Source: Candidatus Kaiserbacteria bacterium (GTDB lineage Bacteria > Patescibacteriota > Minisyncoccia > Phycocordibacterales > UBA918). Taken from it: a stretch of 64,000 nucleotides of DNA. Made by a program: the position numbers and the translations under genes. The stretch is from the NCBI GenBank assembly GCA_016699245.1, contig CP064968.1:768317-832316 (forward strand), read 5' to 3'. Of this stretch, positions 1,558 through 45,846 are shown piece after piece. Each line of letters starts with the position of its first letter. The first letter of the stretch is position 1. The notes under the pieces are model-generated. The model had not been told where the DNA came from. It worked only from the letters and a program-made list of their open reading frames with translations, and made no database searches.

Positions 1558-2889
1558 TCATTTTTTGCTATTGAGTGAATACCAATCTAAGTCCCTCGTA
1601 ATGTACATCACTATAGCGAGCACACCAAACAAAAGTACTGAACCAAAGAGTAATGAATATTGGTCCATCTGAAGAAGGATATACAAATACCCATACAAGG
1701 CAGTGAGGAGTATCCCTATTGAGAAGGCACGCTTCTTCGCTTTGAGGACACTGAGACAGTAACCTGTAATCAATAGTGTCGTTGCAATTGCAGCGACAAA
1801 ATATGCAGGAAGAAACCCAATTATTTCAGCGAAGGAAAGGAGGAGCAGATAAAACAATGCGATAGCTAATCCCACGAGTAAGTACTGTAGGGGATGAATT
1901 CTTAAACCAGCCAACACCTCATACATGAAGAACGTGAGGAAAGTGAGACTGATAAATAGAATGGAATACTTAATAGATCGATCAATCATGGTGTACAAAT
2001 CAACCTCCTGATAGAGACCTACCCCAAATGATTTAGAAAGAAGTAATTCGTTGGTAACTATTGATGAATTACTGAGCCAGTACTGAGGTATGTTCTTGCC
2101 ATACGCGGTGATTTTCCACGTCGCTCCGAAACCATTTTCCGTAATAGTTCTTTCCTCGGGCAAAAACTCGCCCGTAAAGCTAGGTGCATTCCAATCTGAT
2201 TTTACGACAACACTTGTATTTTCTCCGAGTGGTAAAAAAGATATTTCACGACTTCCTTTGAGCGGTAAGGTAAACGAAAAAGGGTGGTTGGGTCGGCTAG
2301 GGTCTAGGTTGATATTTGTATGCACTCCACCGCCATCCAGTGTAGAAAAATCTGAAGAAGGCAACATCTGATAGGTGTTATTCGAAAGGATGAAATCAAA
2401 CATCGACGTAATACCACGCGTATCAGATACATTTATTGAGACTACTGCCTTATTCCATAGTATGCGTGTATCGGATGATTCTTGCAGTGCTATATCAGAA
2501 AGATCAAAATTACCGGTTCCACTCACGATAGTTGTGTAGACTGGGGTTTCGTACACACCTCTTGTGAGTAACTGGGTTTCAATGTTGCTTTCATAGGTCA
2601 ATGTCTCCGGTAAAAGGGTAAGGGTAGTTGTATTCACTACTCGTTCACCAGTGGTGGTGATGGTTGTTTTCTCTACCGGAACAGTGATTACTGGCCCCGC
2701 AATTACTTGCGGCCGACTCCATTGTTCAGAAATCTCATTGGAAGCAGTTTCTTGTCTATTTTCTCTATCTTGTATGACTCCCCATACAAACATGGTTGCT
2801 GCCCACGAAATAACCACGAGTACTGCAAGCGCTATAAGTTTACCAGTCAGATTGTTACTTGGGTGTGAATTGAGAGATATTTCATTCAT
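1558..2889 (-). CDS. creD: CreD-like inner membrane protein
   Basis: 443 aa; N-terminal TM segment, large periplasmic region and a C-terminal polytopic domain; N-terminal motifs (SWG..Q.IAGPVITVP) resemble the CreD family. Confidence 0.5.
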   Translation of the reverse strand: MNEISLNSHPSNNLTGKLIALAVLVVISWAATMFVWGVIQDRENRQETASNEISEQWSRPQVIAGPVITVPVEKTTITTTGERVVNTTTLTLLPETLTYESNIETQLLTRGVYETPVYTTIVSGTGNFDLSDIALQESSDTRILWNKAVVSINVSDTRGITSMFDFILSNNTYQMLPSSDFSTLDGGGVHTNINLDPSRPNHPFSFTLPLKGSREISFLPLGENTSVVVKSDWNAPSFTGEFLPEERTITENGFGATWKITAYGKNIPQYWLSNSSIVTNELLLSKSFGVGLYQEVDLYTMIDRSIKYSILFISLTFLTFFMYEVLAGLRIHPLQYLLVGLAIALFYLLLLSFAEIIGFLPAYFVAAIATTLLITGYCLSVLKAKKRAFSIGILLTALYGYLYILLQMDQYSLLFGSVLLFGVLAIVMYITRDLDWYSLNSKK

Positions 2890-3125
2890 GTTTGATATAT
2901 TTTATTACAGCCTATTCCGAAATTAATGCTCGTTCTCTCATTTTTAACCCCCAAACAGGTTTATTAGTTACGTTGGTTCAGTATGTTTTTTGTAATTATC
3001 ACCACTGATTTGATAGAACTCCTTGGATTTTTCAATAACTCTACAAATTGTGTTCCGAATGGCTTACTTAAAACGAAAACAGCCTCCTATGGAAAACTTA
3101 TGTCTTCGCCCAGGAAGCTGGTGAG

Positions 3126-3512
3126 TTAATCCCATTCATCTGATGGGTAGTGGAATGTGACGTAATAGCCCAATATTACGATGAGGATGCCGGCCAAAAT
3201 AAACGCGATGTGAAGAAAATTTGCTTGATCAGTTATATTCCTTTCGATTACAAAAATCCTGCTGAAAATAAACGAAATTGTGGTACCTATAACTACCACA
3301 ACAATTCCAGCACACCTGTGATCAACTCCCAAATACGAGTACTCGGTTCGTTTCCATAGACCAATACAGAAGAACCATATACTTGCACATAAAAGAAGTG
3401 CGTCACCGACGAAGGGTGGTCGTATCGGATAGAAATAGATGGTGCTAATGCTCAAGAAAAAAAGCACAACACCCACATACGTTACTAACTTCTTTTCGAC
3501 ATAAATTTGCAT
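3126..3512 (-). CDS. Small polytopic membrane protein
   Basis: 128-aa strongly hydrophobic ORF. Confidence 0.35.
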   Translation of the reverse strand: MQIYVEKKLVTYVGVVLFFLSISTIYFYPIRPPFVGDALLLCASIWFFCIGLWKRTEYSYLGVDHRCAGIVVVVIGTTISFIFSRIFVIERNITDQANFLHIAFILAGILIVILGYYVTFHYPSDEWD

Positions 3513-3665
3513 GGATCACCCCTTTTGCAAAGAACACCCAATCCAAGTTGGGAATAGAGAAAAGATACCTCATAATTTGATTTTGTCAAAAAATGCATCC
3601 GGGTCTTCCATAGAACCTGTCCACCCCGCACATACGAAAAAACCCGTGAGGGCTTATTTCATATG

Positions 3666-3736
3666 TGCGGGATGGGGGAATCGAACTCCCGACCAGAGTT
3701 TGGAAAACTCTTATTTTACCACTAAACTAATCCCGC
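3666..3736 (-). tRNA. tRNA-Gly (anticodon TCC)
   Basis: Reverse complement folds as a cloverleaf: GCGGGAT..GTTT/AAAT D-stem, AGAGT-TTTCCAA-ACTCT anticodon arm, GGGAG-TTCGATT-CCCCC T-arm (one mismatch); CCA is not encoded. Confidence 0.7.
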
Positions 3737-27265: not shown

Positions 27266-29401
27266 ATGGAGAAAAAATCATATACCACTTCTATTGAAGG
27301 GAAGCCACTTACCGCCAGCTTCACCAACCTCACCAACCAAGCCCACGGCTCAGTCATGCTCACCATGGGCGAGACCGTTGTACTCGTAACGGCAGTCATG
27401 AGCAAAAAGAGTGCCGAAGCGATTCCATACTTCCCCCTTTCGGTAGAGTTTGAGGAAAAGTTTTATGCCACCGGACAAATTCTGGGCAGCCGTTTCCAAA
27501 GACGCGAGGGTCGACCAAGTGAAGGTGCCGTGCTTTCGGCACGTGTCGTCGACCGTACGATTCGTCCGCTCTTTGACCATGCCATCCGCCATGAAGTGCA
27601 GGTCATCGTGACTGTGTTGAGCGCAGGAGAAGATGACCCCGATGTACTCGGCGTCATTGGTGCATCGCTCGCTCTTTCGGTTTCTAACATTCCTTGGGGA
27701 GGTCCCATAAGCGCGGTGCGTGTTGCAAAGCGTCGTGATACAGGAGTGATTGTTATTAACCCCACCTATACCGAACGCGAAGCGGGGACTCTTTTGTACG
27801 AGGTTCTTGCATGCGGTCAAGACGAGACAATTAACATGATTGAGACTGCAGGCTTTGAGGTGAGTGAGGCAGAAATAGTGCACGCTCTCGAACATGCCGT
27901 AGGCATCAATATGGAGATACTCGCGTTCCAAAAAAAGATTATTGCTGAAATCGGAAAAGCAAAACGTGACATTCCTCTTGCAGCACTCGATGATGCGGCA
28001 GTGGCGCTCTTTGCAGAACACATTGCTCCAAAACTCACCACAACCCTTTTCTCCAACACCACGGGCAAGGCACACCTCTACGAACTTAAGGAAGAGTGGC
28101 TCGCACTTCTTGCCACAGAACTTCCAGAGTCAAACAAAAATCTTGCGAGTGAATATTTTGAACACGCAGTGGATGACGAACTTCATCGCGGTGTCATTCA
28201 CGACAAGGTACGTCCCGATGGTCGCTCTATGGATGAAGTGCGTCCTCTCTTCGCACAAGCAGGAGGCATCAGTCCCGCACTCCATGGCAGTGGGATTTTC
28301 TATCGCGGTGAAACGCATGTACTTTCTGCACTTACCCTCGGTGGCCCCGATGACTCACAAATACTCGACTCAATAGAAGAAAACGGAACAAAAAAACACT
28401 TCATGCATCACTATAACTTCCCCCCATTTTCTGTGGGAGAGACAGGGCGCGTGGGTGGGACCAACCGTCGTATGATTGGCCACGGTGCACTCGCAGAGAA
28501 AGCACTCTTCGCCGTTATCCCCCTGAAGACAGAGTTCCCCTACACCATTCGTCTTGTGTCGGAAACCATGGCATCTAATGGTTCCTCATCAATGGGTTCC
28601 GTCTGTGCATCGACACTTGCGCTTATGGATGGAGGGGTTCCAATTACGCGCCCCGTCGCAGGTATTGCATCAGGCCTCATGATGGAGACGCACACCACCT
28701 ATCAACTCATTACCGACATCCAAGGTCCCGAGGATGAACATGGTGACATGGACTTTAAAGTAGCGGGTACGACAGAGGGCATCACTGCTATTCAAATGGA
28801 TGTAAAGGTGGGGGGTATTCCCGTTACAATACTTGCAGAAGCTCTTGAGAAAGCGCGTATTGCTCGCCTCCATATTCTTGAAACACTCACGAGTGAGATT
28901 GGTGCTCCACGCGCTGACATCTCTCCACGTGCACCAAAGATTATTGTGATGCAAATCAACCCAGATCAAATTGGTCTTGTGATTGGGGGTGGAGGAAAGA
29001 CTATCAACGGTATCAAGGATGATACGGGTGTCGATGAAATTACGATTGAAGACGACGGTACCGTGTACATCACCGGTAAGGACCAGGCGCCTCTCCTTGC
29101 ACAAGCGCGCATCGCGGCACTTACCAAAGTGTATGTAATAGGAGAGCGCATGGAAGCAGAGGTAACCCGCATCGCAACCTTCGGTGCATTCGCAAAGATG
29201 GATGCTCAAAATGAGGGGCTCATCCACATATCAGAAATCGTGTCATGGCGTCTCGAAAATCTCGATGGTATTTTGAAGGTGGGCGACAAAGTACCCGTCG
29301 TCGTTTCTAAGGTAGAAGATGGGAAAATTGGTCTCTCGATTAAAAAAGCAGACCCTGAGTGGGCGACGAAGAAAGGCCTTAAAGCACCAGAGAAAAAATA
29401 A
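27266..29401 (+). CDS. pnp: Polynucleotide phosphorylase (PNPase)
   Basis: Two RNase PH domains plus a KH domain (IGLVIGGGGKTINGI) and a C-terminal S1 domain; 711 aa. Confidence 0.9.
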   Translation: MEKKSYTTSIEGKPLTASFTNLTNQAHGSVMLTMGETVVLVTAVMSKKSAEAIPYFPLSVEFEEKFYATGQILGSRFQRREGRPSEGAVLSARVVDRTIRPLFDHAIRHEVQVIVTVLSAGEDDPDVLGVIGASLALSVSNIPWGGPISAVRVAKRRDTGVIVINPTYTEREAGTLLYEVLACGQDETINMIETAGFEVSEAEIVHALEHAVGINMEILAFQKKIIAEIGKAKRDIPLAALDDAAVALFAEHIAPKLTTTLFSNTTGKAHLYELKEEWLALLATELPESNKNLASEYFEHAVDDELHRGVIHDKVRPDGRSMDEVRPLFAQAGGISPALHGSGIFYRGETHVLSALTLGGPDDSQILDSIEENGTKKHFMHHYNFPPFSVGETGRVGGTNRRMIGHGALAEKALFAVIPLKTEFPYTIRLVSETMASNGSSSMGSVCASTLALMDGGVPITRPVAGIASGLMMETHTTYQLITDIQGPEDEHGDMDFKVAGTTEGITAIQMDVKVGGIPVTILAEALEKARIARLHILETLTSEIGAPRADISPRAPKIIVMQINPDQIGLVIGGGGKTINGIKDDTGVDEITIEDDGTVYITGKDQAPLLAQARIAALTKVYVIGERMEAEVTRIATFGAFAKMDAQNEGLIHISEIVSWRLENLDGILKVGDKVPVVVSKVEDGKIGLSIKKADPEWATKKGLKAPEKK

Positions 29402-29416
29402 TATTCACGAACACAG

Positions 29417-29449
29417 GAAAACGCGTCCACAGGTGTGGACGCGTTTTCC
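29417..29449 (+). terminator. Rho-independent terminator after pnp
   Basis: gaaaacgcgtccac-aggt-gtggacgcgttttcc. Confidence 0.65.
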
Positions 29450-29489
29450 TAAATTCATGAGATACTTATGGTATTACCTTTTCATCACT

Positions 29490-31322
29490 ATGGATACTAA
29501 TACACCAAAAAATAATTCGGACATGGGCATTGTTTTTAACACCCCCAATACGAAAGAACCAGCTCAAAAAGACATGCATGCACTGTCTACGGCAAGTACT
29601 CCAAAAGACTCGCACCTCAGTAGTCGTGGGGGAGTGTTTGATGTCTCAAAGGTGTTTGAAGGCGAGCAGGGAGGTGAAGCGGGTATCATCATTAACGATC
29701 GGAAACATCGCCGTGCTTCGTTCGGAGAAAATATGCAAGCGGTGTTTAGCGAGTGGTGGGGAAGCGCGAGCAAGAAAATTGAAAAGTCAGTGGAAGCAAT
29801 GCCGAAACTTACCAAGGAAGAACCCACACTTGCCAAAGCAGAAACACGAGCTGAGATAGTGCAAGAAGCTGCGAAGTATTCCACTATTGCTCCACAAGAT
29901 GATCATAAAGTAGTACTTGAAAAATTCCATACATTCAAAAGTGATGTTGCACGTATTACCGGTACCCCTACCGTGGTACTCAAAGAGCCTCCTAAAAAGA
30001 AGGGAATACTGAGTGCCTGGACACACATTGTCGACAGTCCCAAGGATGTCCCTGTTGCGAAACCGGTTCCCGTAAAAGAGAAAGAGGCACTTGATATGCG
30101 ACACGCTATCGCTCCCGTGGTCGCGCAGAAAATTCAAAATGATATCAAACACTTTACTCCTGGAACACACATCCCTCCAAAACAAATCGAGAAGGTTCCA
30201 CTGCAGGCCACTCCCGAGAAAAAAGTCTCGATGCCAACTCCAAACATACTACCAAAGAATCCTGTAGTTGTTTCTCATGATGTCACCTCGTATGCAAAAC
30301 CCATTCCTAATTTTGAGAAGACATCCGCTTTCAAAAAAAGTGATTTTTCTCCACTTTCCAAAGCGGCACCAGTAGTACCAAAAGCCGTTCCACCTGTTGC
30401 TCTGTCTCCTACCTGGCTTTCTGCTCGAGAAGTGAAAGAGGAAACTTCTGAGTCCGATATTGTGGTTGGGCATATGTCTATTCCCCAACCTGTGGAACAA
30501 ATCCGCACAGCACTCAAACCTCCGCTTACCCCCCAAAGGTCTACCGTGAGTGCGATTGGACTCTCTACTGACCCACACACATTTCCTGAAGATAGGATAC
30601 AAAATATCAATACCAAACGTTCAGCATCACAAGTTCAGAAAACGAGTTCTGTTCCACGCACTGCAGTCACCATGACCACATGGCTTATCTTTGGTGGAAT
30701 AGTAGCACTTGGTGTCATACTTGCACTCGTCGTAAGTATCTACGTCAATGTGTTTAAAGGAGAATCTGATTCTATCTATGCGGTATCTTCATTCTTTACC
30801 ACATCAGAAGTAATCGGTGTTCCACTTGCAGGAGATGGTTCGGGGTTCGCTACTGCGTTTGCCTTACGTGCACAAGATTCCACAAATGAGAGTGTTCAGA
30901 TATATCCAGTTGTACAAAAGGGCGAGGTGACGCGACCCGCCTCAAGTCAGGAATTCTTTACAGCACTCAGAATGGACGTGTCACGTGCGTTCCTCAGTAG
31001 CCTCGACGACGCATTCATGATGGGAGTAGTCACTGCCAAAAAGCCCGAACCATTCCTCATCATCCGCTCATACAATTTTGATGAACTGTTTGCAGGACTC
31101 CTCGCGTGGGAGGGCAGCATGCAAAAAGATCTTGCACCACTTTTTGGGACATCCTCGGGTGAAATGGGCGTCTTCATCGATGCCGTTGCAAACAACAAAT
31201 CAACGCGCATTCTTAAAAGTGACACAGGGGAGGAGGTGCTCGTATATTCCTTCATCAATAAAAACACCGTCATCATCACCACAAATGGAGATGCCTTGGC
31301 CATACTTCTTAGCAAGTTTTAG
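29490..31322 (+). CDS. Hypothetical protein with a Pro-rich N-terminal region, a single TM segment and a C-terminal extracytoplasmic domain
   Basis: The long ORF 29319..31322 overlaps the pnp terminator, so the start is probably the Met at 29490; TM segment WLIFGGIVALGVILALVVSIYV. Confidence 0.45.
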   Translation: MDTNTPKNNSDMGIVFNTPNTKEPAQKDMHALSTASTPKDSHLSSRGGVFDVSKVFEGEQGGEAGIIINDRKHRRASFGENMQAVFSEWWGSASKKIEKSVEAMPKLTKEEPTLAKAETRAEIVQEAAKYSTIAPQDDHKVVLEKFHTFKSDVARITGTPTVVLKEPPKKKGILSAWTHIVDSPKDVPVAKPVPVKEKEALDMRHAIAPVVAQKIQNDIKHFTPGTHIPPKQIEKVPLQATPEKKVSMPTPNILPKNPVVVSHDVTSYAKPIPNFEKTSAFKKSDFSPLSKAAPVVPKAVPPVALSPTWLSAREVKEETSESDIVVGHMSIPQPVEQIRTALKPPLTPQRSTVSAIGLSTDPHTFPEDRIQNINTKRSASQVQKTSSVPRTAVTMTTWLIFGGIVALGVILALVVSIYVNVFKGESDSIYAVSSFFTTSEVIGVPLAGDGSGFATAFALRAQDSTNESVQIYPVVQKGEVTRPASSQEFFTALRMDVSRAFLSSLDDAFMMGVVTAKKPEPFLIIRSYNFDELFAGLLAWEGSMQKDLAPLFGTSSGEMGVFIDAVANNKSTRILKSDTGEEVLVYSFINKNTVIITTNGDALAILLSKF

Positions 31323-35271: not shown

Positions 35272-35650
35272 CTGTTCTTTACGGAGTACTTTGTACCCAG
35301 AACGAGAATCGTGAAAGAAATATGTTATAAGCGATTTTTATGGACTCTCCACCTACGCAACCACTACGGTAATTATCTGAAACAAAAAGAGCGAACTTGG
35401 AAAGGCGCTCCATGTAGTACCCACAAGAGGTACGGTTACATGATAGCGGAGTAGGGAGGAGGGTCAACCTTGCAAAAAGGTCTTTTCCACAGTTTGACTC
35501 AAAGTGCTTTTCTGACGCTCTATATAGGGGTATTTAAGGTATTGCGGTATCTTTTCTTTGTGTTCTAATATTCTAGATGTTTTCAGTATCCCCAAAATGG
35601 GTACGGGGACACAGCATGTTATAGTTGATGCCACATTTACTTTTTTATAT

Positions 35651-38600
35651 ATGGATCATCTTCACGGACTCAACGACGCACAACGAAATGCGGTAGTAAC
35701 AACAGAGGGACCGCTCTTGGTACTCGCGGGTGCGGGCTCAGGAAAAACCCGCGTAATTACTCATCGGATTATCAATCTCATTTTACAAGGAGTACCTCCA
35801 GAGCGGATTTTGGCAGTGACATTTACCAATAAAGCCGCAAAAGAAATGCGCGAGCGCGTAATGAATCTTATTCATACACATCAAGGAGGAGCGCGTGCGA
35901 CTGAGAGCGGAGTACCTTTAGTGACCACTTTCCACGCGCTTGGGGTACGGATGCTTCGGGAGCACCATGAGGTGTTTGGTCTTCGGAAGCAGTTTGTGAT
36001 TTATGACAGAAGCGACTCAACGAGCGCTATAAAGAAGGCTATGGAGCGGGCAGGTCAGGACCCAAAGCAGTTTGAGCCACGGAAAATACTCTCAATAATA
36101 TCGCGCGCAAAGGGCGATGCGGTAACCCAAACTGACTTTAGTGGGAGTGCGCGTACGTACCCCGAGCGAGTTGCTGCAGATGTGTGGATTCACTATGAGG
36201 CAATTTTGAAGGAGGATCATGCGCTTGATTTTGATGATCTCCTCGCAAAGACACTCTCTATGCTCAAAAGCCATCCGCCAATTCTTGATGAGTACCGCAA
36301 GCGTTTTACCTATGTACACATCGATGAATACCAGGACACCAACCGGGTGCAGTTCGAAATCGCACGGCTTATAGTAGGAGATAGGGCTAATCTTTGTGTG
36401 GTGGGTGATGTCGACCAGTGTCTTATGGAAGGAACAGAGGTCACCATGGCTGACAAAACGAAATGCCCAGTAGAAAAAATAAAAAAAGGTGACTCTGTAC
36501 TTTCATGTTATGGAAGTGGTGATTTTCGTCCAGCACTCGTCGTGAGGGCACGAGCACTTGTGCCCAAAGACGAGTTAGTGCGAATTGAAACAGTAAGTGG
36601 AAAAGTACTCATAAGTACAAAAGACCATATTCATTTTGCTAGTTATGTTCTTGGAATTACCCCACAGACGTACATCACCTACCTCATGTGGAAAGGAGGC
36701 GTTGGATGGCGACTCGGTACAACACAGATATACACAAAAGGCCAAAAAAAGTCAGTTGTTGGGCTCATACAGCGGAGCAATCATGAGCATGCAGACGCGA
36801 CGTGGGTGGTGAGTACGCATCACTCCATTCAGGAGGCTCGTGTTCATGAGTACATTCTTTCTCTTACCTATCAAATACCCACAGTTCCCTTTATTCCACG
36901 TCGTGGACTGAGTACTCACGGTTATGTACATGACGGAGACGCGCTAAAACAAATTTTTTCTTCAGTTGATACAGAGAAATCTGCACGCAAGCTTCTTTCT
37001 GACTACCATCTCTCCCTCTCTTTTCCGCACCATCGCCCACAGTCATCGAAAAGTGTTCGAAAGAATATCAACGTTACCCTCTGTGGCGACAGACGAGGAA
37101 AGACGCCAATGCACCGAATCAGTATGGTCGGCTCAGATAGTGAGACAAAAAAACTCCTTATGTCTCATGGTTTTTCTGTTCGTCCCGCAAAGAAGAACTC
37201 CACGGGTTGGCGCTTCGAAACTGCACATGCTTCATTTGCACACATTGAGGCACTGGTCACACAACTCCAATCAATCATTCCTCAGGCATATGTCACCATG
37301 CATGCGCGTTTCGGAATACAAGATGAGAATCTAATACAAAAAAACTCACTTCTTTTTACTCCCGCAAGTTCCGTTAAAGCCGGAATGGCTCTTTTTGGAA
37401 GTAATGGAAAGTACGAAATTGTGAAAGAAGTGTCTCTTTTAAAATCCTCTTCTCGCGTGTTCGATATCGATATTGAACACACACACAACTATATTGCAAA
37501 TGGTATTGTGACACACAATTCAATTTACTCATGGCGTGGTGCAGATATCAAAAATATTTTGCAATTTGAACGTCATTTTCCCAATGCAAAAATTATCATG
37601 CTCGAGGAAAACTATCGCTCCACACAGACCATCATCACCGCATCAAATGATGTTATTGAAAAAAATGTAAACCGTCCTCTCAAAAAAGTATTTACCAAAA
37701 ATCATGAAGGTGAACTTATCTCACTCTACGCAGCTATGGGTGGGCAAGAAGAAGCGGAGTACGTAGCACTCACTGCAAAAGATTTGATAAAAAACGGCGT
37801 ATTTCCTTCTGAAATTGCCATCCTCTTCCGTACCAACTTCCAATCGCGTGCACTCGAGGAGGCGTTTATCAACTACGATGTACCGTATCAAATGCTCGGT
37901 ACCAAATTTTTTGAGCGCAGGGAGGTAAAGGATGTACTTTCCTTTCTTCGTTTCGCGTGTAACCCCGACAGCAACGCCGACTTGGTACGCATCATCAACA
38001 CACCTCCGCGAGGTATTGGAAAAGTAACACTCCTAAAAATAGTAGAGGGGAAGCGTGCTGAACTCCCGGGGAAAACGAGTGAAAAAGTTGATGCGTTTTA
38101 TCGCATGATAGACGACATTGCTACCTATGCAAAGGAGCACCCCGTCCACGAGACGCTTGCATTCATCATGAAGCATACCGGCATGGAAGCCGAATACAAA
38201 ACAGGCGGGGAAGAAGGGCTTGAGCGTCTCGAAAACGTCCGTGAGTTGGTAACCCTCGGCACCAAGTATCAGGAGTACGGGCCCGAAGAGGCTATCGAGC
38301 ATCTCCTTGAAGACTCCGCTCTCGGAAGTGATCAGGATGAGATGAAAGAAAAAGAGGAATTTGATGCCGTGCGCCTCATGACTATCCACTCTTCAAAGGG
38401 ACTTGAATTCCCCTATATCTTTATTACCGGCCTCGAGGAAGGACTCTTTCCCCATGAGCGCCTCAGTGACGAGGGAATTGACGAGGAAGAAGAGCGACGT
38501 CTCTTTTACGTAGCCCTCACCCGCGCAAAAAAGAAAGTATTTCTTTCCTACGCCCATATTCGTACTATATTTGGAACACAACGGGTAAATGCGCCATCTT

Positions 38601-38686
38601 CTTTCCTTCGCGACATCAGAAGTGAACTCCTTGAAAGCAAAAACCCCGCAGAATCTGGCTTCGAACGTACTATTTATCTGGATTAG
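35651..38686 (+). CDS. UvrD/PcrA-type DNA helicase carrying an in-frame intein
   Basis: Walker A motif AGAGSGKTRV; helicase motif III (VGDVDQ / SIYSWRGA) interrupted by a 367-aa insertion; the start is probably the Met at 35651. Confidence 0.85.
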   Translation: MDHLHGLNDAQRNAVVTTEGPLLVLAGAGSGKTRVITHRIINLILQGVPPERILAVTFTNKAAKEMRERVMNLIHTHQGGARATESGVPLVTTFHALGVRMLREHHEVFGLRKQFVIYDRSDSTSAIKKAMERAGQDPKQFEPRKILSIISRAKGDAVTQTDFSGSARTYPERVAADVWIHYEAILKEDHALDFDDLLAKTLSMLKSHPPILDEYRKRFTYVHIDEYQDTNRVQFEIARLIVGDRANLCVVGDVDQCLMEGTEVTMADKTKCPVEKIKKGDSVLSCYGSGDFRPALVVRARALVPKDELVRIETVSGKVLISTKDHIHFASYVLGITPQTYITYLMWKGGVGWRLGTTQIYTKGQKKSVVGLIQRSNHEHADATWVVSTHHSIQEARVHEYILSLTYQIPTVPFIPRRGLSTHGYVHDGDALKQIFSSVDTEKSARKLLSDYHLSLSFPHHRPQSSKSVRKNINVTLCGDRRGKTPMHRISMVGSDSETKKLLMSHGFSVRPAKKNSTGWRFETAHASFAHIEALVTQLQSIIPQAYVTMHARFGIQDENLIQKNSLLFTPASSVKAGMALFGSNGKYEIVKEVSLLKSSSRVFDIDIEHTHNYIANGIVTHNSIYSWRGADIKNILQFERHFPNAKIIMLEENYRSTQTIITASNDVIEKNVNRPLKKVFTKNHEGELISLYAAMGGQEEAEYVALTAKDLIKNGVFPSEIAILFRTNFQSRALEEAFINYDVPYQMLGTKFFERREVKDVLSFLRFACNPDSNADLVRIINTPPRGIGKVTLLKIVEGKRAELPGKTSEKVDAFYRMIDDIATYAKEHPVHETLAFIMKHTGMEAEYKTGGEEGLERLENVRELVTLGTKYQEYGPEEAIEHLLEDSALGSDQDEMKEKEEFDAVRLMTIHSSKGLEFPYIFITGLEEGLFPHERLSDEGIDEEEERRLFYVALTRAKKKVFLSYAHIRTIFGTQRVNAPSSFLRDIRSELLESKNPAESGFERTIYLD
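36419..37519 (+). mobile_element. Intein (367 aa) inserted in helicase motif III of the UvrD/PcrA gene
   Basis: Begins with Cys (CLMEG), ends with ..VTHN and is followed by Ser+1 (SIYSWRGA); the flanks restore the canonical DQSIYxxRGA motif. Confidence 0.75.
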
Positions 38687-41162: not shown

Positions 41163-42059
41163 GTGAAAGGCATCATACGCATAGGAGGAGCACTCGCTGT
41201 GGGGATTGTAATCATTCTCACGGCTTTAAATGTGCCCGATCAAACAAATGCTGAAATGTCCGGCTCGGTTGTTGTTGCTACTGCCCCTGAGCGCAACTAT
41301 ATCGAATCAGTAGACTCTGATGGAGATGGCATTAAAGACTGGGAAGAGAGTCTTGGCAACCGCTTTATAGAAATTGCAAAAAGTAAGTCCTCCTCAACTG
41401 TATCAGGGACTCAAGCTCCCTACACTCCTCCCACTACACTAACTGGGAAGTTTTCTGAAGCTTTTTTTCAGGACTATCTCGATGGGAAAATAAAAGGGGA
41501 AGATTTTAGTAATCCTGAAGCATTTATTGGAAATGCAGTAACTGCTATCGAAAAAAACTCGCAGAGTAAACGTCACTCACGACTCGAACTCACCATCATT
41601 CCTTCTTCATTTGAATCTGTGTATACCTATGGAAATGAGCTTTCCTTGCTTTTGAAGAAACACTCTATCAAAAACGAAAACGAGGCGGTCATTTTAAAGC
41701 GTGCCCTCGAGACAAATAATCCTTCCGTTCTTGCTGAACTTGTACCTATCCAGGCGGTGTACACAGGCATGATAGTTGACGCACTTAGTCTGCCTGTCCC
41801 CGAAACACTTGTAGATGAGCATATCGCCTTTCTCAATGCATGCGAAGCGCTCGCTACCGACATAGAAGCAATGCAAGTTGCGTTTAGTGACCCTCTCTAT
41901 GCCCTAGCACGAGTAAAAGAATATCAAAATGATGCTAAGAATCTCGCAAAAAGTTTTGGAAATTTTGCAAAAGCATTTACTGCTGAGGGGGTTACTTATG
42001 CCAATACTGAGCCGGCAGCATTCTTTTATTTATTTGATGTAGACCATAACGCTCTATGA
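41163..42059 (+). CDS. Hypothetical exported protein (first gene of the T4SS-like cluster)
   Basis: N-terminal signal anchor. Confidence 0.4.
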   Translation: MKGIIRIGGALAVGIVIILTALNVPDQTNAEMSGSVVVATAPERNYIESVDSDGDGIKDWEESLGNRFIEIAKSKSSSTVSGTQAPYTPPTTLTGKFSEAFFQDYLDGKIKGEDFSNPEAFIGNAVTAIEKNSQSKRHSRLELTIIPSSFESVYTYGNELSLLLKKHSIKNENEAVILKRALETNNPSVLAELVPIQAVYTGMIVDALSLPVPETLVDEHIAFLNACEALATDIEAMQVAFSDPLYALARVKEYQNDAKNLAKSFGNFAKAFTAEGVTYANTEPAAFFYLFDVDHNAL

Positions 42060-43543
42060 AAAATACCTTTTTGAGAAAAATATACTCGTCCCTCATAGCT
42101 GGTTTGCTTGTTCTTTCCTTTGTGAGCGCTCCCGTCTCTCAAACACTTGAAGTTAAAAAGGCGGAAGCAATCCCTGTCTTTGATGCTGCTGCATTTAAAC
42201 TACAACTAACTGAATACATTGCAGAATATGGCACATTTGTTCAATCCACGATTTCAGCCGCGGCCGACGTAGCTATGGCTGCATCAGTAGAAAGTATTGC
42301 CCTTAAGGAATATGTCCTCGATGGTATTGTGTGGTTTCTTATCAACCTCATCCTTCAAGAGATGATACGAAGCGTCACACAGTGGGTTGCAAGTGGTTTC
42401 CAAGGTAGCCCTGCATTCGTCTCTGATTTGCAAGGTTTTCTCATGGACTTAGCAGACAAGGTTGTTGGTGATTTTATTTATGGTTCAAACCTCAGTTTTT
42501 TGTGCTCTCCCTTTAAGCTCAATATTCAACTTGCGCTTGACCTGCAATACAGCAAGACTCGTTCCTATAAGGCAAAGTGTACCCTGAGCGGTGTGGTAAA
42601 TAACGTCAGTAATTTCATGGAAGGTGATTTCCTCTCGGGCGGATGGAATGAGTGGTTCAAAATGACCCAAACTCCGGGGAACAACCAATATGGCGCCTAT
42701 ATGGAAGCATCGGTTGGTCTGAGCGCCACACTACAAAATGCCAAAGGCGAGGAGGTCAAATTGCTCGATTTTGGTAAAGGACTTTTGTCGCTCAAGGATG
42801 ATGATGGAAACATCATTACTCCAGGGACGGCTATTGAGGCAACCTTAAACGAGTCACTCAGTATTCCAGGAGAACGCCTAACTATTGCTGATGAAATTGA
42901 TGAACTTATTGGTACACTTTTTGCACAACTGGCTAAGACGGTACTTTCTGCTGCGACTGGTGGTCTTTCTGGCTTAAGTAGTACAGGGAAGAATTCTTCA
43001 TATTTCCCGAGCGTTCAAGCAGAGGCAGCAGCGCAAGGAAGCACAGGTGGGGCGGTAACTCTTTTTAGCAGTAGCCTTTCTGTTCTTACTGAGTACATCG
43101 GATATCAAAACACAATTGTCAGCTCTATTAACGGAGCAAAGACGTATGTTGAAAATTCTTGTTATACGACGAAATCTGGCAACACGGTAATTACACTCGG
43201 GACTCTTGATGCATCCCTAGCATCCCAACTGACTGCTGCATCAAATGCGGTTACGTCTGCTACCACAAAACTCAATGTTATAAAACAATATGAGTCTGAC
43301 TACACTGCGCTCGGTGCAAGCTCAACCCAAGCACTTCTGGCAAAATACAATGCTACTGACTCCGCTACTGCACAACAAAATCTCATTACACAGTACCGAG
43401 CATATGTTGCGTCTGGAGCACTTCCCACAACAGGAGGCAATGTTGATGTGAAAATGAATACTATTCCTAATGTCCAGAAAGAAATCCAGACATTCAAGGG
43501 TAATGTCGATACCTACTGCGCAAGTCTTCTAGTAAACCCATAA
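42056..43543 (+). CDS. Hypothetical exported protein
   Basis: N-terminal TM or signal segment; 495 aa. Confidence 0.4.
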   Translation: MKNTFLRKIYSSLIAGLLVLSFVSAPVSQTLEVKKAEAIPVFDAAAFKLQLTEYIAEYGTFVQSTISAAADVAMAASVESIALKEYVLDGIVWFLINLILQEMIRSVTQWVASGFQGSPAFVSDLQGFLMDLADKVVGDFIYGSNLSFLCSPFKLNIQLALDLQYSKTRSYKAKCTLSGVVNNVSNFMEGDFLSGGWNEWFKMTQTPGNNQYGAYMEASVGLSATLQNAKGEEVKLLDFGKGLLSLKDDDGNIITPGTAIEATLNESLSIPGERLTIADEIDELIGTLFAQLAKTVLSAATGGLSGLSSTGKNSSYFPSVQAEAAAQGSTGGAVTLFSSSLSVLTEYIGYQNTIVSSINGAKTYVENSCYTTKSGNTVITLGTLDASLASQLTAASNAVTSATTKLNVIKQYESDYTALGASSTQALLAKYNATDSATAQQNLITQYRAYVASGALPTTGGNVDVKMNTIPNVQKEIQTFKGNVDTYCASLLVNP

Positions 43544-43569: not shown

Positions 43570-45846
43570 ATGAATACCATCCAACAAAAAAATAAATTCT
43601 TGCAGGGCGTGCTTGCCTTTATTTTCTTTGTGATTCTTTGTACCCCTGTTGCTATTTCATTTGAAAAGGACTCGGTGAAATCGGCCTCCGAAACAATTGG
43701 AGTCTCGGAATTTTCTTCAATTAAAATTGCTATCAGCCCCACCATAGCATACGCAGCAGATAAGGGTAAAAACGATGCTTCAGGTTCGGAATGGGTCCAG
43801 AAAGTGGTGATGGTTCTTGGTAATTTACTCCTTAGTATTGGTGCTTTCTTTGCATGGGTCACCGGCAACTTCCTTGATAAGTCACTCAAAGAACTCGTCT
43901 TTGGAATGGGTGATTTAATAAATAAAGGTGGAATAGGAATTGCTATTGATACCGCATGGGGTATTGTCCGTGATTTGTGTAACCTTGCATTTATATTTGG
44001 ATTTATTTTCCTCGGTATTCGTACTATCATTGACCCCGATAATTCTTCAGTGAAGCGTACACTTTCTCAAATTATCATTGGTGCATTCCTCATCAACTTC
44101 AGCCTCTATATGGCGAAGTTCATCATTGATTTTTCAAACTTTACTGCGTACTCCATTTACAACGCAATGGTAACAGGCGGAAGTTCCATCTCCATGATTA
44201 TGTTTGACCAGCTGGGAATCACCACATTTTATTCAACGAAAGGAATAAATACAGCCCAGTTTGCTCAAGCGACCGGGGATGGAATGATTGCGTTTTACAT
44301 CATGGGAATGATTCTTCTCCTCGTGGCTTCATTTATTTTTCTTGCTTCTACGCTACTCCTTGTTTCTCGATTCGTGCTCCTGGTATTCCTTATGATTGGT
44401 TCGCCCATACTTTTTGCTGCAACGGTGTTTCCAAAGACAGAGGGGTACGCCAAATTGCTCTGGGGGAAACTTCTCTCATTATCGTTTTTTGCACCGCTCT
44501 ACCTCCTTCTCACACTCATATCAATGATGATGCTGAAAAGTTTTGTGGGAGTAATGAGTGGCGGACAACAATTTGCATCTACCTTCACTGACCCTAATGC
44601 CAAAATGGATGCCTTCGGTGTCGTCGTGAGCTTCGTGGTAGTGATATATTTCCTCATTCAGTCGTTACTCATTGCTAAACAGCTTGGTGTTGCAGGTGCG
44701 GATAGAGCGATTGGGCTTGGGAAAACACTGAAAGGAAATGCACAAAGCCTTGTAGGAAGGACGGCACTGGGCTGGGGTGGAAATAAAATCGCAAAATGGC
44801 AAGAGAACGCACGCTACAATGGGGGAGCAGGGAGTAAGGCTGCTGCTAGAGCTGCACGATGGACGGGTGTTGATGCTGCTGCGAATGCTGCTGCGAATGC
44901 GAAATGGGGAGGTTCGAAATCAAGTAAAGAAACTGCTAGCGAGAGTCAGGAAAGGGGTCGAAAACATGCCAGAGCACAGCAAGTATCAACCATCTCTACG
45001 GCAGTCTCTGAAAGCACACACCTCAATGCAGAGCGAGAGAGAATTGAGAAGGACACTTCATCCACCCAAGCACAAAAAGATGCTGCACGTACAGCGAGCG
45101 ATACCGCTAATATGCGCATGGAGAGTGCACTTGCCGGTGCGTCCTCAGAACAAACGCTTGAACTTCTTAGGAAGCATAAAAGCGGGCCTGAACGAGATGC
45201 CATCGTTGCCAACCTTTCTGCAAGCCAGTTTGACGGTCTCATGAAAGCCAAGCCAGAAGATCTTGATGATGGAAAGAAAGAAGAACTTCGCGGTCAACGT
45301 TCTACCGCAGTGCAAAATCGACTGATTGCTGCAGAGGATAGAAAGCGTAAAGCATCTGCAACGCCGAGTGCTCCCGCAGTAGCGGCAACTATTCAGGATG
45401 TTATTGGAAAAGCAGATGGAAAGGATCTTGATGCAATGGGCTTTGATACTGTGCTCAGTCACGCAGGACAACTCTCAACTAAGCAAGTCGATGACATGTC
45501 ACTTACACCAACAGCCAAAACCCGTCTCAAGGATGCACGGAAAGCAGCACTTATTGCTGAGTTCAATACAGGTGGTGCTGGAGCTGGCGCGGGAGATCTA
45601 TTTAAGAGAATCACCAGTGAGACAGAACGAGCCAAACTACCCGGAGAGATCCTTAAGGACAGCGGAGCAGCTCCGTATCTTACACAACAGGTTCTCACCA
45701 AGATGCTTGATAATGAAAGTGTTCTTGCTTCAGACCGGGCTGCTATTAAAACAAACGTTGAAACAGCATGGCTTACCAATCCTACAAAGGCACGACAATT
45801 TGCAGACTTCTTTGATGACACCCCCGCAGGTAAACAATATGTATAG
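43570..45846 (+). CDS. VirB6/TrbL-like polytopic membrane protein with a long low-complexity hydrophilic C-terminal tail
   Basis: Multiple TM helices in the first ~380 aa; Ala/Lys-rich tail; located next to PrgI-like and VirB4-like genes. Confidence 0.5.
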   Translation: MNTIQQKNKFLQGVLAFIFFVILCTPVAISFEKDSVKSASETIGVSEFSSIKIAISPTIAYAADKGKNDASGSEWVQKVVMVLGNLLLSIGAFFAWVTGNFLDKSLKELVFGMGDLINKGGIGIAIDTAWGIVRDLCNLAFIFGFIFLGIRTIIDPDNSSVKRTLSQIIIGAFLINFSLYMAKFIIDFSNFTAYSIYNAMVTGGSSISMIMFDQLGITTFYSTKGINTAQFAQATGDGMIAFYIMGMILLLVASFIFLASTLLLVSRFVLLVFLMIGSPILFAATVFPKTEGYAKLLWGKLLSLSFFAPLYLLLTLISMMMLKSFVGVMSGGQQFASTFTDPNAKMDAFGVVVSFVVVIYFLIQSLLIAKQLGVAGADRAIGLGKTLKGNAQSLVGRTALGWGGNKIAKWQENARYNGGAGSKAAARAARWTGVDAAANAAANAKWGGSKSSKETASESQERGRKHARAQQVSTISTAVSESTHLNAERERIEKDTSSTQAQKDAARTASDTANMRMESALAGASSEQTLELLRKHKSGPERDAIVANLSASQFDGLMKAKPEDLDDGKKEELRGQRSTAVQNRLIAAEDRKRKASATPSAPAVAATIQDVIGKADGKDLDAMGFDTVLSHAGQLSTKQVDDMSLTPTAKTRLKDARKAALIAEFNTGGAGAGAGDLFKRITSETERAKLPGEILKDSGAAPYLTQQVLTKMLDNESVLASDRAAIKTNVETAWLTNPTKARQFADFFDDTPAGKQYV

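Follow-up and report, generated by a model that had tools for sequence, protein, structure and literature searches.

What interrupts the helicase gene in the 64,000-nucleotide (nt) stretch of Candidatus Kaiserbacteria DNA considered here (contig CP064968.1, positions 768,317 to 832,316; this whole stretch is called the window), and what is the function of the domain in the middle of the insertion? The precursor gene (35651..38686; this and all following features are on the + strand) encodes a PcrA/UvrD-like helicase of superfamily 1A (SF1A), and the insertion at 36419-37519 is a genuine canonical class-1 intein, placed in frame between the Gln and the Ser of helicase motif III (DxDQ|SIYxWRGA). 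As a full description of this element, a class-1 splicing intein with a homing endonuclease as its central domain is considered likely. The intein itself is already known, but the literature and databases searched contain no description of what its central domain is.

The open reading frame (ORF) at 35558..38686 (+) is translated into IVGDRANLCVVGDVDQ | CLMEGTEVTMADK ... HNYIANGIVTHN | SIYSWRGADIKN. The ORF tool placed its start at TTG 35558, while homology to PcrA starts at ATG 35651 (MDHLHGLNDAQ...). The N-terminus of PcrA is aligned by MDHLHGLNDAQR, so that ATG 35651 is probably the true start, and the 31 codons upstream of it (35558-35650) are probably an untranslated leader. Within this gene, which is recognized by Pfam, by TIGR01073 and by its match to Geobacillus stearothermophilus PcrA (1pjr), the block from Cys to Asn comprises exactly nt 36419-37519 and 367 amino acids (aa), with the junctions NLCVVGDVDQ | CLMEGTEV ... 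IANGIVTHN | SIYSWRGADI. According to the sequence and the 1pjr alignment, the N-extein (35651..36418) has the first half of motif III, VVGDVDQ (nt 36398-36418), at its end, and the C-extein (37520..38683) starts with Ser+1 and the second half, SIYSWRGA (nt 37520-37543). After deletion of the block, the helicase aligns with 1pjr at an E-value of 3e-160, and motif III is gap-free against both 1pjr and Escherichia coli UvrD (3lfu) through VGDVDQSIYSWRGADI; the window reads 'vgdvdqsiyswrgadi' where PcrA reads 'vgdadqsiyrwrgadi'. Counted on this alignment, the insertion junction lies between PcrA Q254 and S255. Q254, W259, and R260 belong to motif III and link the hydrolysis of ATP to the binding of DNA.

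The host protein is a member of the PcrA/UvrD/Rep SF1A helicases, with the Pfam domains UvrD-helicase (3.5e-79) and UvrD_C (1.1e-70) and the helicase motifs including motif III. The match of the NCBIfam pcrA model is divided into two stretches in the precursor and is a single continuous one in the spliced sequence. TIGR01073 pcrA is the best NCBIfam match of the spliced helicase, and as its 697 bits do not reach the equivalog cutoff of 911.2, 'PcrA-like' is the safe name. An original prediction, which was made from the sequence alone, had placed a 367-aa intein here and had expected that its removal would restore motif III. Its boundaries are exact to the base, the restored motif aligns without gaps as described, and the Cys1, the terminal His-Asn, and the Ser as first C-extein residue on which it relied are all present in the translation. 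A second intein was searched for in the 64-kb window and none was found.

Comparison with intein models, which had been proposed as a check on this prediction, gave scores above the cutoffs for both Pfam Intein_splicing (PF14890; 40.8 bits, gathering cutoff 35.8) and NCBIfam TIGR01443 intein_Cterm (30.2 bits, cutoff 15.6), and all four splicing blocks A, B, F, and G were found. The N-terminal part of the Hint domain (residues 1-75; 36419..36643) comprises block A, C1-LMEGT, and block B, T67-K-D-H70, with conserved C, T, and H columns. The C-terminal part (residues 308-367; 37340..37519) is recognized by TIGR01443 and comprises block F, VFD349IDIEHTHNYIANG, and block G, IVTH366N367; in a PDB sequence search, these C-terminal blocks match the solved Pho RadA and Spl DnaX inteins. 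The class-1 splicing residues are thus complete, consisting of Cys1, T67-x-x-H70, D349 with H356-N357, H366-N367, and Ser+1. Cys1 (nt 36419-36421) is invariant in the family alignments, as are the T and H of block B, also in the phage homolog. An AlphaFold model of the intein, calculated with 20 homologs, has a predicted local distance difference test score (pLDDT) of 90.4 and a predicted template-modelling score (pTM) of 0.88. With this whole-intein model, Foldseek retrieved the PI-SceI, Tli/Pho VMA, and PI-PfuI inteins with E-values down to 4.7e-7 (PI-SceI) and a probability of 1.00, and the gp41-1 mini-intein with a target-normalised template-modelling (TM) score (TMt) of 0.83-0.84.

The window intein is probably functional, and the following splicing route is predicted. 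The gene would be translated into a 1011-aa precursor, which should be inactive as a helicase because its motif III is split. Splicing by the Hint domain would be initiated by an N-S acyl shift at Cys1, followed by transesterification to Ser+1, cyclisation of Asn367 aided by His366, and an O-N shift. The products would be a 644-aa helicase with restored motif III and the free 367-aa intein.

A search with the intein protein retrieved only UvrD/PcrA proteins, which come from many phyla and have 41-59% identity. In a scan of GTDB with one genome per species, this intein was found at the identical site in at least 284 species, and all 78 loci that were read through have an intact ORF with the junction DQ|C...HN|[S/C]xYxxRGA. 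Among the GTDB matches listed, the closest loci belong to metagenome-assembled genomes of Saccharibacteria, Kaiserbacteria, and Pacebacteria (53-58% identity); further hosts are Azospirillum sp. A26 (complete chromosome), Roseomonas ATCC 49961, Acidobacteria, Rubrobacter, Solirubrobacterales, Ktedonobacterales, Dormibacteria, and beta- and gammaproteobacteria. At E<=1e-3, a profile of the central domain finds matches in at least 1860 representatives of clusters formed at 50% identity, and the seven long representatives that were checked are all UvrD-family helicases, some of them with two or three inteins. The UvrD/PcrA motif-III intein is not rare; it is a widespread and already-known kind of element. 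The view that this site is a known insertion hotspot is supported by annotations in SPO1 and BASEL phages and by the at least 284 GTDB species, but not by the literature read, in which a review places PcrA/UvrD inteins at the P-loop (PMC5874633).

In this family, inteins and their flanking exteins disagree in synonymous divergence, which leads to the conclusion that the motif-III intein moves horizontally or is replaced independently of the host gene. In three Steroidobacteraceae (L041/L043/L045), the synonymous divergence (dS) of the intein is 0.28-0.44 versus 0.87-1.10 for both extein flanks, which is two- to four-fold lower with disjoint bootstrap intervals. In two Solirubrobacterales (L067/L069), the exteins are 94% identical and the inteins only 65%, with saturated intein dS.

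The two Hint parts enclose a central region of about 230 aa (residues ~80-300), which forms a folded, basic, and two-lobed domain in the AlphaFold model. Lobe 1 (residues 80-166; 36656..36916) is modeled with strands at 85-92 and 96-105, a helix at 115-122, a strand at 127-134, and a helix at 137-151; its secondary structure, conservation, and ratio of nonsynonymous to synonymous divergence (dN/dS) make it the putative catalytic module. It is followed by two inter-lobe helices (173-181, 185-195) and a loop with the conserved residues P203-H204-H205 (36917..37054), as seen in the model and in the conservation pattern. Lobe 2 (residues 213-300; 37055..37318) carries the conserved motifs LCGDRRG..PMHRI and SVRPAK..WRFET and has a strand-strand-helix-strand-strand-helix-strand layout between residues 217 and 297 in the model. 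The net charge is +5 for lobe 1 and +8 for lobe 2, and lobe 2 is probably a DNA-binding module. Its most conserved motif, LCGDRRGKTPMHRI (residues ~221-234, window 37079-37120), resembles the ankyrin consensus D..G.TPLH.A and gave sub-threshold matches to DARPin/ankyrin sequences (E 0.13-1.5); this resemblance is probably due to chance, and the model has a beta-hairpin at this position.

Conservation is highest in lobe 1. Among 173 family members, Y88, R98, and G100 are conserved in 100%, R119, E123, W129, E144, and P203 in 99%, and D126, M90, P154, and H204 in 98%. Y88, M90, R98, G100, R119, and E144 are also invariant in 32 diverse sequences that include three phage lineages, and the window copy keeps all residues with at least 85% conservation in the family. 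Across 68 loci, lobe 1 has a mean pairwise identity of 58.5% and Hint one of 54.6%, and the values for lobe 2 (46.4%) and the helicase extein (44.2%) are lower. Close pairs have dN/dS values of 0.02-0.25 in lobe 1, 0.09-0.37 in lobe 2, and 0.08-0.16 in Hint, and every part of the intein is under purifying selection.

Homologs of lobe 1 without lobe 2 are found in the intein of the SPO1 helicase (E 3e-18) and in a methyltransferase intein of a Streptococcus suis phage (E 2.5e-16), which indicates a modular architecture of the central domain. The latter intein is unannotated and resides in the 'adenine-specific methyltransferase' of Streptococcus phage phi-SsuYTJ2_rum (MN270277, an S. suis prophage; locus nt 1580-3691), with the junctions HEP|CQPAGT...GIVTHN|CLYGWK. 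The opposite arrangement is seen in four mini-variants of bacterial UvrD inteins (P0026, P0027, P0029, and P0038; ~243-246 aa), in which lobe 1 and the linker are gone and lobe 2 and the Hint ends are kept; these may represent a degeneration stage of the homing cycle. A profile search with lobe 1 also returned seven short proteins, among which there was no evidence for free-standing lobe 1 enzymes. One of them (P0203) is almost the same as a portion of the SPO1 intein, and another (P0199, from Caloramator), the only one whose genomic context was read, derives from a pcrA-intein gene that is broken by frameshifts. In Caloramator sp. (CP118396, 1710798-1717166), the gene is called as short fragments, among them a lobe-1-only ORF of 122 aa and split UvrD_C pieces, and it is either a pseudogene or affected by sequencing frameshifts.

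In the proposed mechanism, the central domain would act as a homing endonuclease that cuts intein-less alleles at the coding sequence of motif III, and repair of the cut allele would copy the intein in. Lobe 1 with Y88, R98, G100, R119, and E144 would be the likely catalytic part, and lobe 2 would serve as accessory DNA-binding part. For some actinophage inteins, endonucleases encoded out of frame or antisense have been reported (bioRxiv 10.1101/2025.01.02.630785). For the window intein, this arrangement was rejected, as ORFs in alternative frames are short or their position is not conserved in low-GC homologs. With no ORF conserved in another frame or on the opposite strand inside the intein, the in-frame domain is left as the sole candidate for homing.

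Both the nuclease activity and the nuclease class are putative. The strand-strand-helix-strand-helix order of lobe 1, in which the first strand carries an invariant Tyr, the second an invariant Gly, and the two helices an invariant Arg and Glu, respectively, resembles that of GIY-YIG enzymes. In an hhalign comparison with a GIY-YIG profile of nine sequences (from T4 I-TevI/II and SegA/B/C/F as well as E. coli UvrC and Cho), these residues are in register with the GIY-YIG catalytic residues; 1 of 100 column-shuffled controls reached the observed score of 15.8, and other segments of the intein scored 8-10.6. A search with the I-TevI catalytic domain had yielded only nine close homologs, too few for a diverse GIY-YIG profile. 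The GIY-YIG likeness is a lead, short of a demonstration: a very divergent GIY-YIG-like fold of lobe 1 is a tentative assignment with somewhat less than an even chance of being correct. It is slightly more doubtful still that the central domain constitutes a previously undescribed class of intein homing endonucleases, in which a cryptic GIY-YIG-like lobe inside Hint is combined with a separate basic DNA-binding lobe. In 2009, GIY-YIG domains were reported beside split inteins and not inside inteins, and Vsr-like domains were likewise not known in inteins (Dassa et al., PMC2677866).

Several results weigh against a homing endonuclease in this intein or against its proposed class. The score of the hhalign comparison is weak (P 0.035, probability 1.5%). 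Pfam, NCBIfam, and PHROG scans of the central domain gave no match in the window copy, in 17 relatives, in the phage homolog, or in distant representatives. Fold searches, for which a second model of the central domain alone (pLDDT 86) was used, gave mostly LAGLIDADG enzymes as top matches in the PDB, and these were marginal (I-OnuI, E 4e-3, TM 0.21). In BFVD, there were weak matches to GIY-YIG/NUMOD (E 0.007-0.1), SUI1, and LAGLIDADG proteins beyond the homologous phage helicases. The central domain has no canonical LAGLIDADG acidic residue. Furthermore, the window intein has a host-like composition (GC content 0.439 and GC content at third codon positions 0.371, versus 0.453+/-0.035 and 0.409+/-0.053 for the window genes), distances of intein and extein are correlated across the family (Spearman 0.60), and the intein sits in a gene order that is common to other classes of the candidate phyla radiation (CPR).

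Further searches were also negative. The GIY-YIG family PF01541 is not matched in the central domain at E<=10, the lobe 1 profile matches no PDB chain, and GIY-YIG structures are not among the top 50 PDB fold matches of the central domain. Sequence searches of the central domain against the PDB, with the single sequence and two profiles, gave no match other than noise from ankyrin repeats on GDRRGKTPMHRI (E 0.19). For HNH, there is no match in Pfam, NCBIfam, or PHROG and no conserved His/Asn/His metal pattern in the alignments. Accordingly, the large internal domain that had been anticipated from the size of the insertion is present, but Pfam, NCBIfam, PHROG, and PDB sequence matches do not allow it to be recognised as a LAGLIDADG or HNH endonuclease.

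LAGLIDADG is the commonest type of intein endonuclease, and the central domain could be a highly diverged or degenerate two-lobed member of this group. In addition to the I-OnuI match, I-CvuI was aligned over 87 columns with a root-mean-square deviation of 4.4 and a probability of 0.85, the whole-intein model aligned best (more than 450 columns) with LAGLIDADG-bearing inteins such as PI-SceI, Tli/Pho VMA, and PI-PfuI, and lobe 2 has a strand-strand-helix-strand-strand-helix order that agrees with a LAGLIDADG half-domain. However, LAGLIDADG_1/2/3 and Hom_end have no match at E<=10 in 17 family members or the phage homolog, whereas second inteins of some of the same helicases match LAGLIDADG_3 at 1e-14 to 1e-21. 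Lobe 1 has three strands only and no preceding helix, and the acidic residue of an 'LLxDxGL' helix is out of register with the catalytic position. The TM-scores of the fold matches are ~0.2-0.3, and eIF1/SUI1 and MotA domains score equally in the PDB search. A LAGLIDADG-like fold is thus held to be unlikely, and the probability left by this and the GIY-YIG-like fold falls to something else.

Alternatively, the element could be a genuine splicing intein with a non-nuclease central domain, which would be retained for folding of the Hint halves or for a host-level role, such as DNA- or stress-dependent control of splicing of the repair helicase, in an immobile and vertically inherited copy. This would agree with the lack of any nuclease motif or family match and with the mini-variants, which retain lobe 2 without lobe 1. 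It would also agree with the host-like composition, with the conserved synteny in CPR classes that have the intein in common, with the intein-extein correlation, and with the change of the +1 residue to Cys in the CPR relatives, which suggests a long coexistence. Owing to its composition, this correlation, and the shared gene order, the window copy looks long resident and may have been vertically inherited. In contrast, an enzyme would be expected to show an invariant polar set such as the Y, R, R, and E of lobe 1 and a dN/dS as low as that of this lobe, inteins of unrelated host genes carry lobe 1 along, and the discordant synonymous divergence points to movement of the family between genomes, which requires homing activity. 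A non-nuclease domain is therefore regarded as improbable, somewhat more so than a LAGLIDADG enzyme. The original prediction of an active mobile element is supported at the level of the family, by the discordant synonymous divergence; the base composition of this copy is host-like.

It is hardly conceivable that the insertion is a non-splicing Hint-like accessory that the mature helicase retains, or that it disrupts a pseudogene, because all catalytic junction residues are present and conserved across the 78 loci, motif III is cut between Q and S, the ORF is intact, the Hint parts are under purifying selection, and homologous insertions in SPO1 and BASEL phages are annotated as inteins. A class-1 splicing intein with a homing-endonuclease domain hence stays the preferred reading.

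The window copy shares its gene order, consisting of a divergent LysM-M23 peptidase gene, pcrA with the intein, and rsmA, with the CPR loci, and on this ground the window most likely belongs to a CPR/Patescibacteria chromosome. All of the CPR relatives (L001-L011, L017, and L019) have Cys+1 (THN|CIY), so that their spliced helicase would read DQCIY instead of the canonical DQSIY, and this suggests a long coadaptation of host and intein in those lineages. Ser+1 is kept in the window copy (37520-37522) and in the non-CPR bacterial loci that were read, and the phi92-like phage copy has Cys+1. The multi-intein UvrD-family helicases (P0177, P0118, P0179, P0140, and P0146) comprise proteins of up to 2536 aa. 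One of their extra inteins has a LAGLIDADG_3 match and is located before the UvrD-helicase domain match, and another one has a DUF559/Vsr-like domain; thus, several endonuclease types coexist in one host protein. Neighboring ORFs of the window at 29319-31322, 41163-43543, and 43570-45846 (all +) were surveyed by Pfam. A 667-aa ORF that overlaps the 3' end of the PNPase gene has no match. Two further ORFs of 298 and 495 aa are likewise unmatched, and after them comes a protein of 758 aa in which a TrbL/VirB6 (type IV secretion) domain is weakly recognized.

As such, an intein in a UvrD-family helicase is ordinary: it belongs to a catalogued kind, and the site is already annotated in SPO1 and phi92-group phages. 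The present analysis documents the motif-III intein in CPR/Patescibacteria within a conserved gene neighborhood, and therefore even very small genomes carry a selfish element in a repair helicase that needs splicing to work. Beyond this, there is a large, purifying-selected, and moving intein family with an endonuclease-like domain that matches no described endonuclease family. If this domain is indeed a new or GIY-YIG-like intein endonuclease, it would represent a new intein architecture and a new scaffold for programmable nucleases that recognises a highly conserved helicase-coding sequence.

Among known systems, GIY-YIG enzymes of the I-TevI type consist of an N-terminal catalytic domain, a linker, and a C-terminal DNA-binding domain, and the catalytic lobe, linker, and basic lobe of the window intein would be a parallel layout. 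The strand-strand-helix-strand-helix order of lobe 1 and the placement of its Tyr, Gly, Arg, and Glu fit those of these enzymes, and its Tyr-to-Gly spacing of 12 is equal to that of UvrC. It differs from these enzymes in that the second Tyr is replaced by Arg, in an 11-aa insertion before the Arg helix, and in that PF01541 is unmatched. The PI-SceI/VMA-type inteins, which are the best matches of the whole model, have the same bifunctional layout, in which Hint is interrupted in frame by a DNA-binding/endonuclease domain. In contrast to these, the window intein is devoid of LAGLIDADG motifs or Pfam matches, and the lobe topology differs (TM ~0.27).

Closer counterparts are found in UvrD-family helicases themselves. 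In their survey of bacterial inteins, Novikova et al. (2016, PMC4760082) counted 16 in UvrD, distributed over five phyla, which represent the same kind of element in the same host protein family, with Acidobacteria, Actinobacteria, and Proteobacteria as hosts common to both; the text of the survey gives no UvrD insertion site or endonuclease type and does not list CPR hosts. The annotated 275-aa intein of the Bacillus phage SPO1 helicase gp34.33 (NC_011421) occupies the same site (GDDDQ|C...THN|SMYSFRGA), and its Hint ends and lobe 1 are homologous to those of the window intein. Unlike the latter, it resides in a phage, is 92 aa shorter, and has no lobe 2, and the identity is 25% over the matched part. 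The intein in the UvrD/Rep helicase of phi92-like coliphages (Justusliebigvirus), which is annotated as 'intein' in phage PaulScherrer (MZ501100), differs from the window intein by its Cys+1 and by the lack of conservation of the lobe 2 motifs LCGDRRG and PMHRI and of the lobe 1 residues H124, D126, H134, and R141. Its homology extends through all 367 aa (27% identity, E 1e-17), and it gives a structure match in BFVD (TMq 0.69, E 2.6e-12), and has both the same insertion site and the same two-lobed layout.

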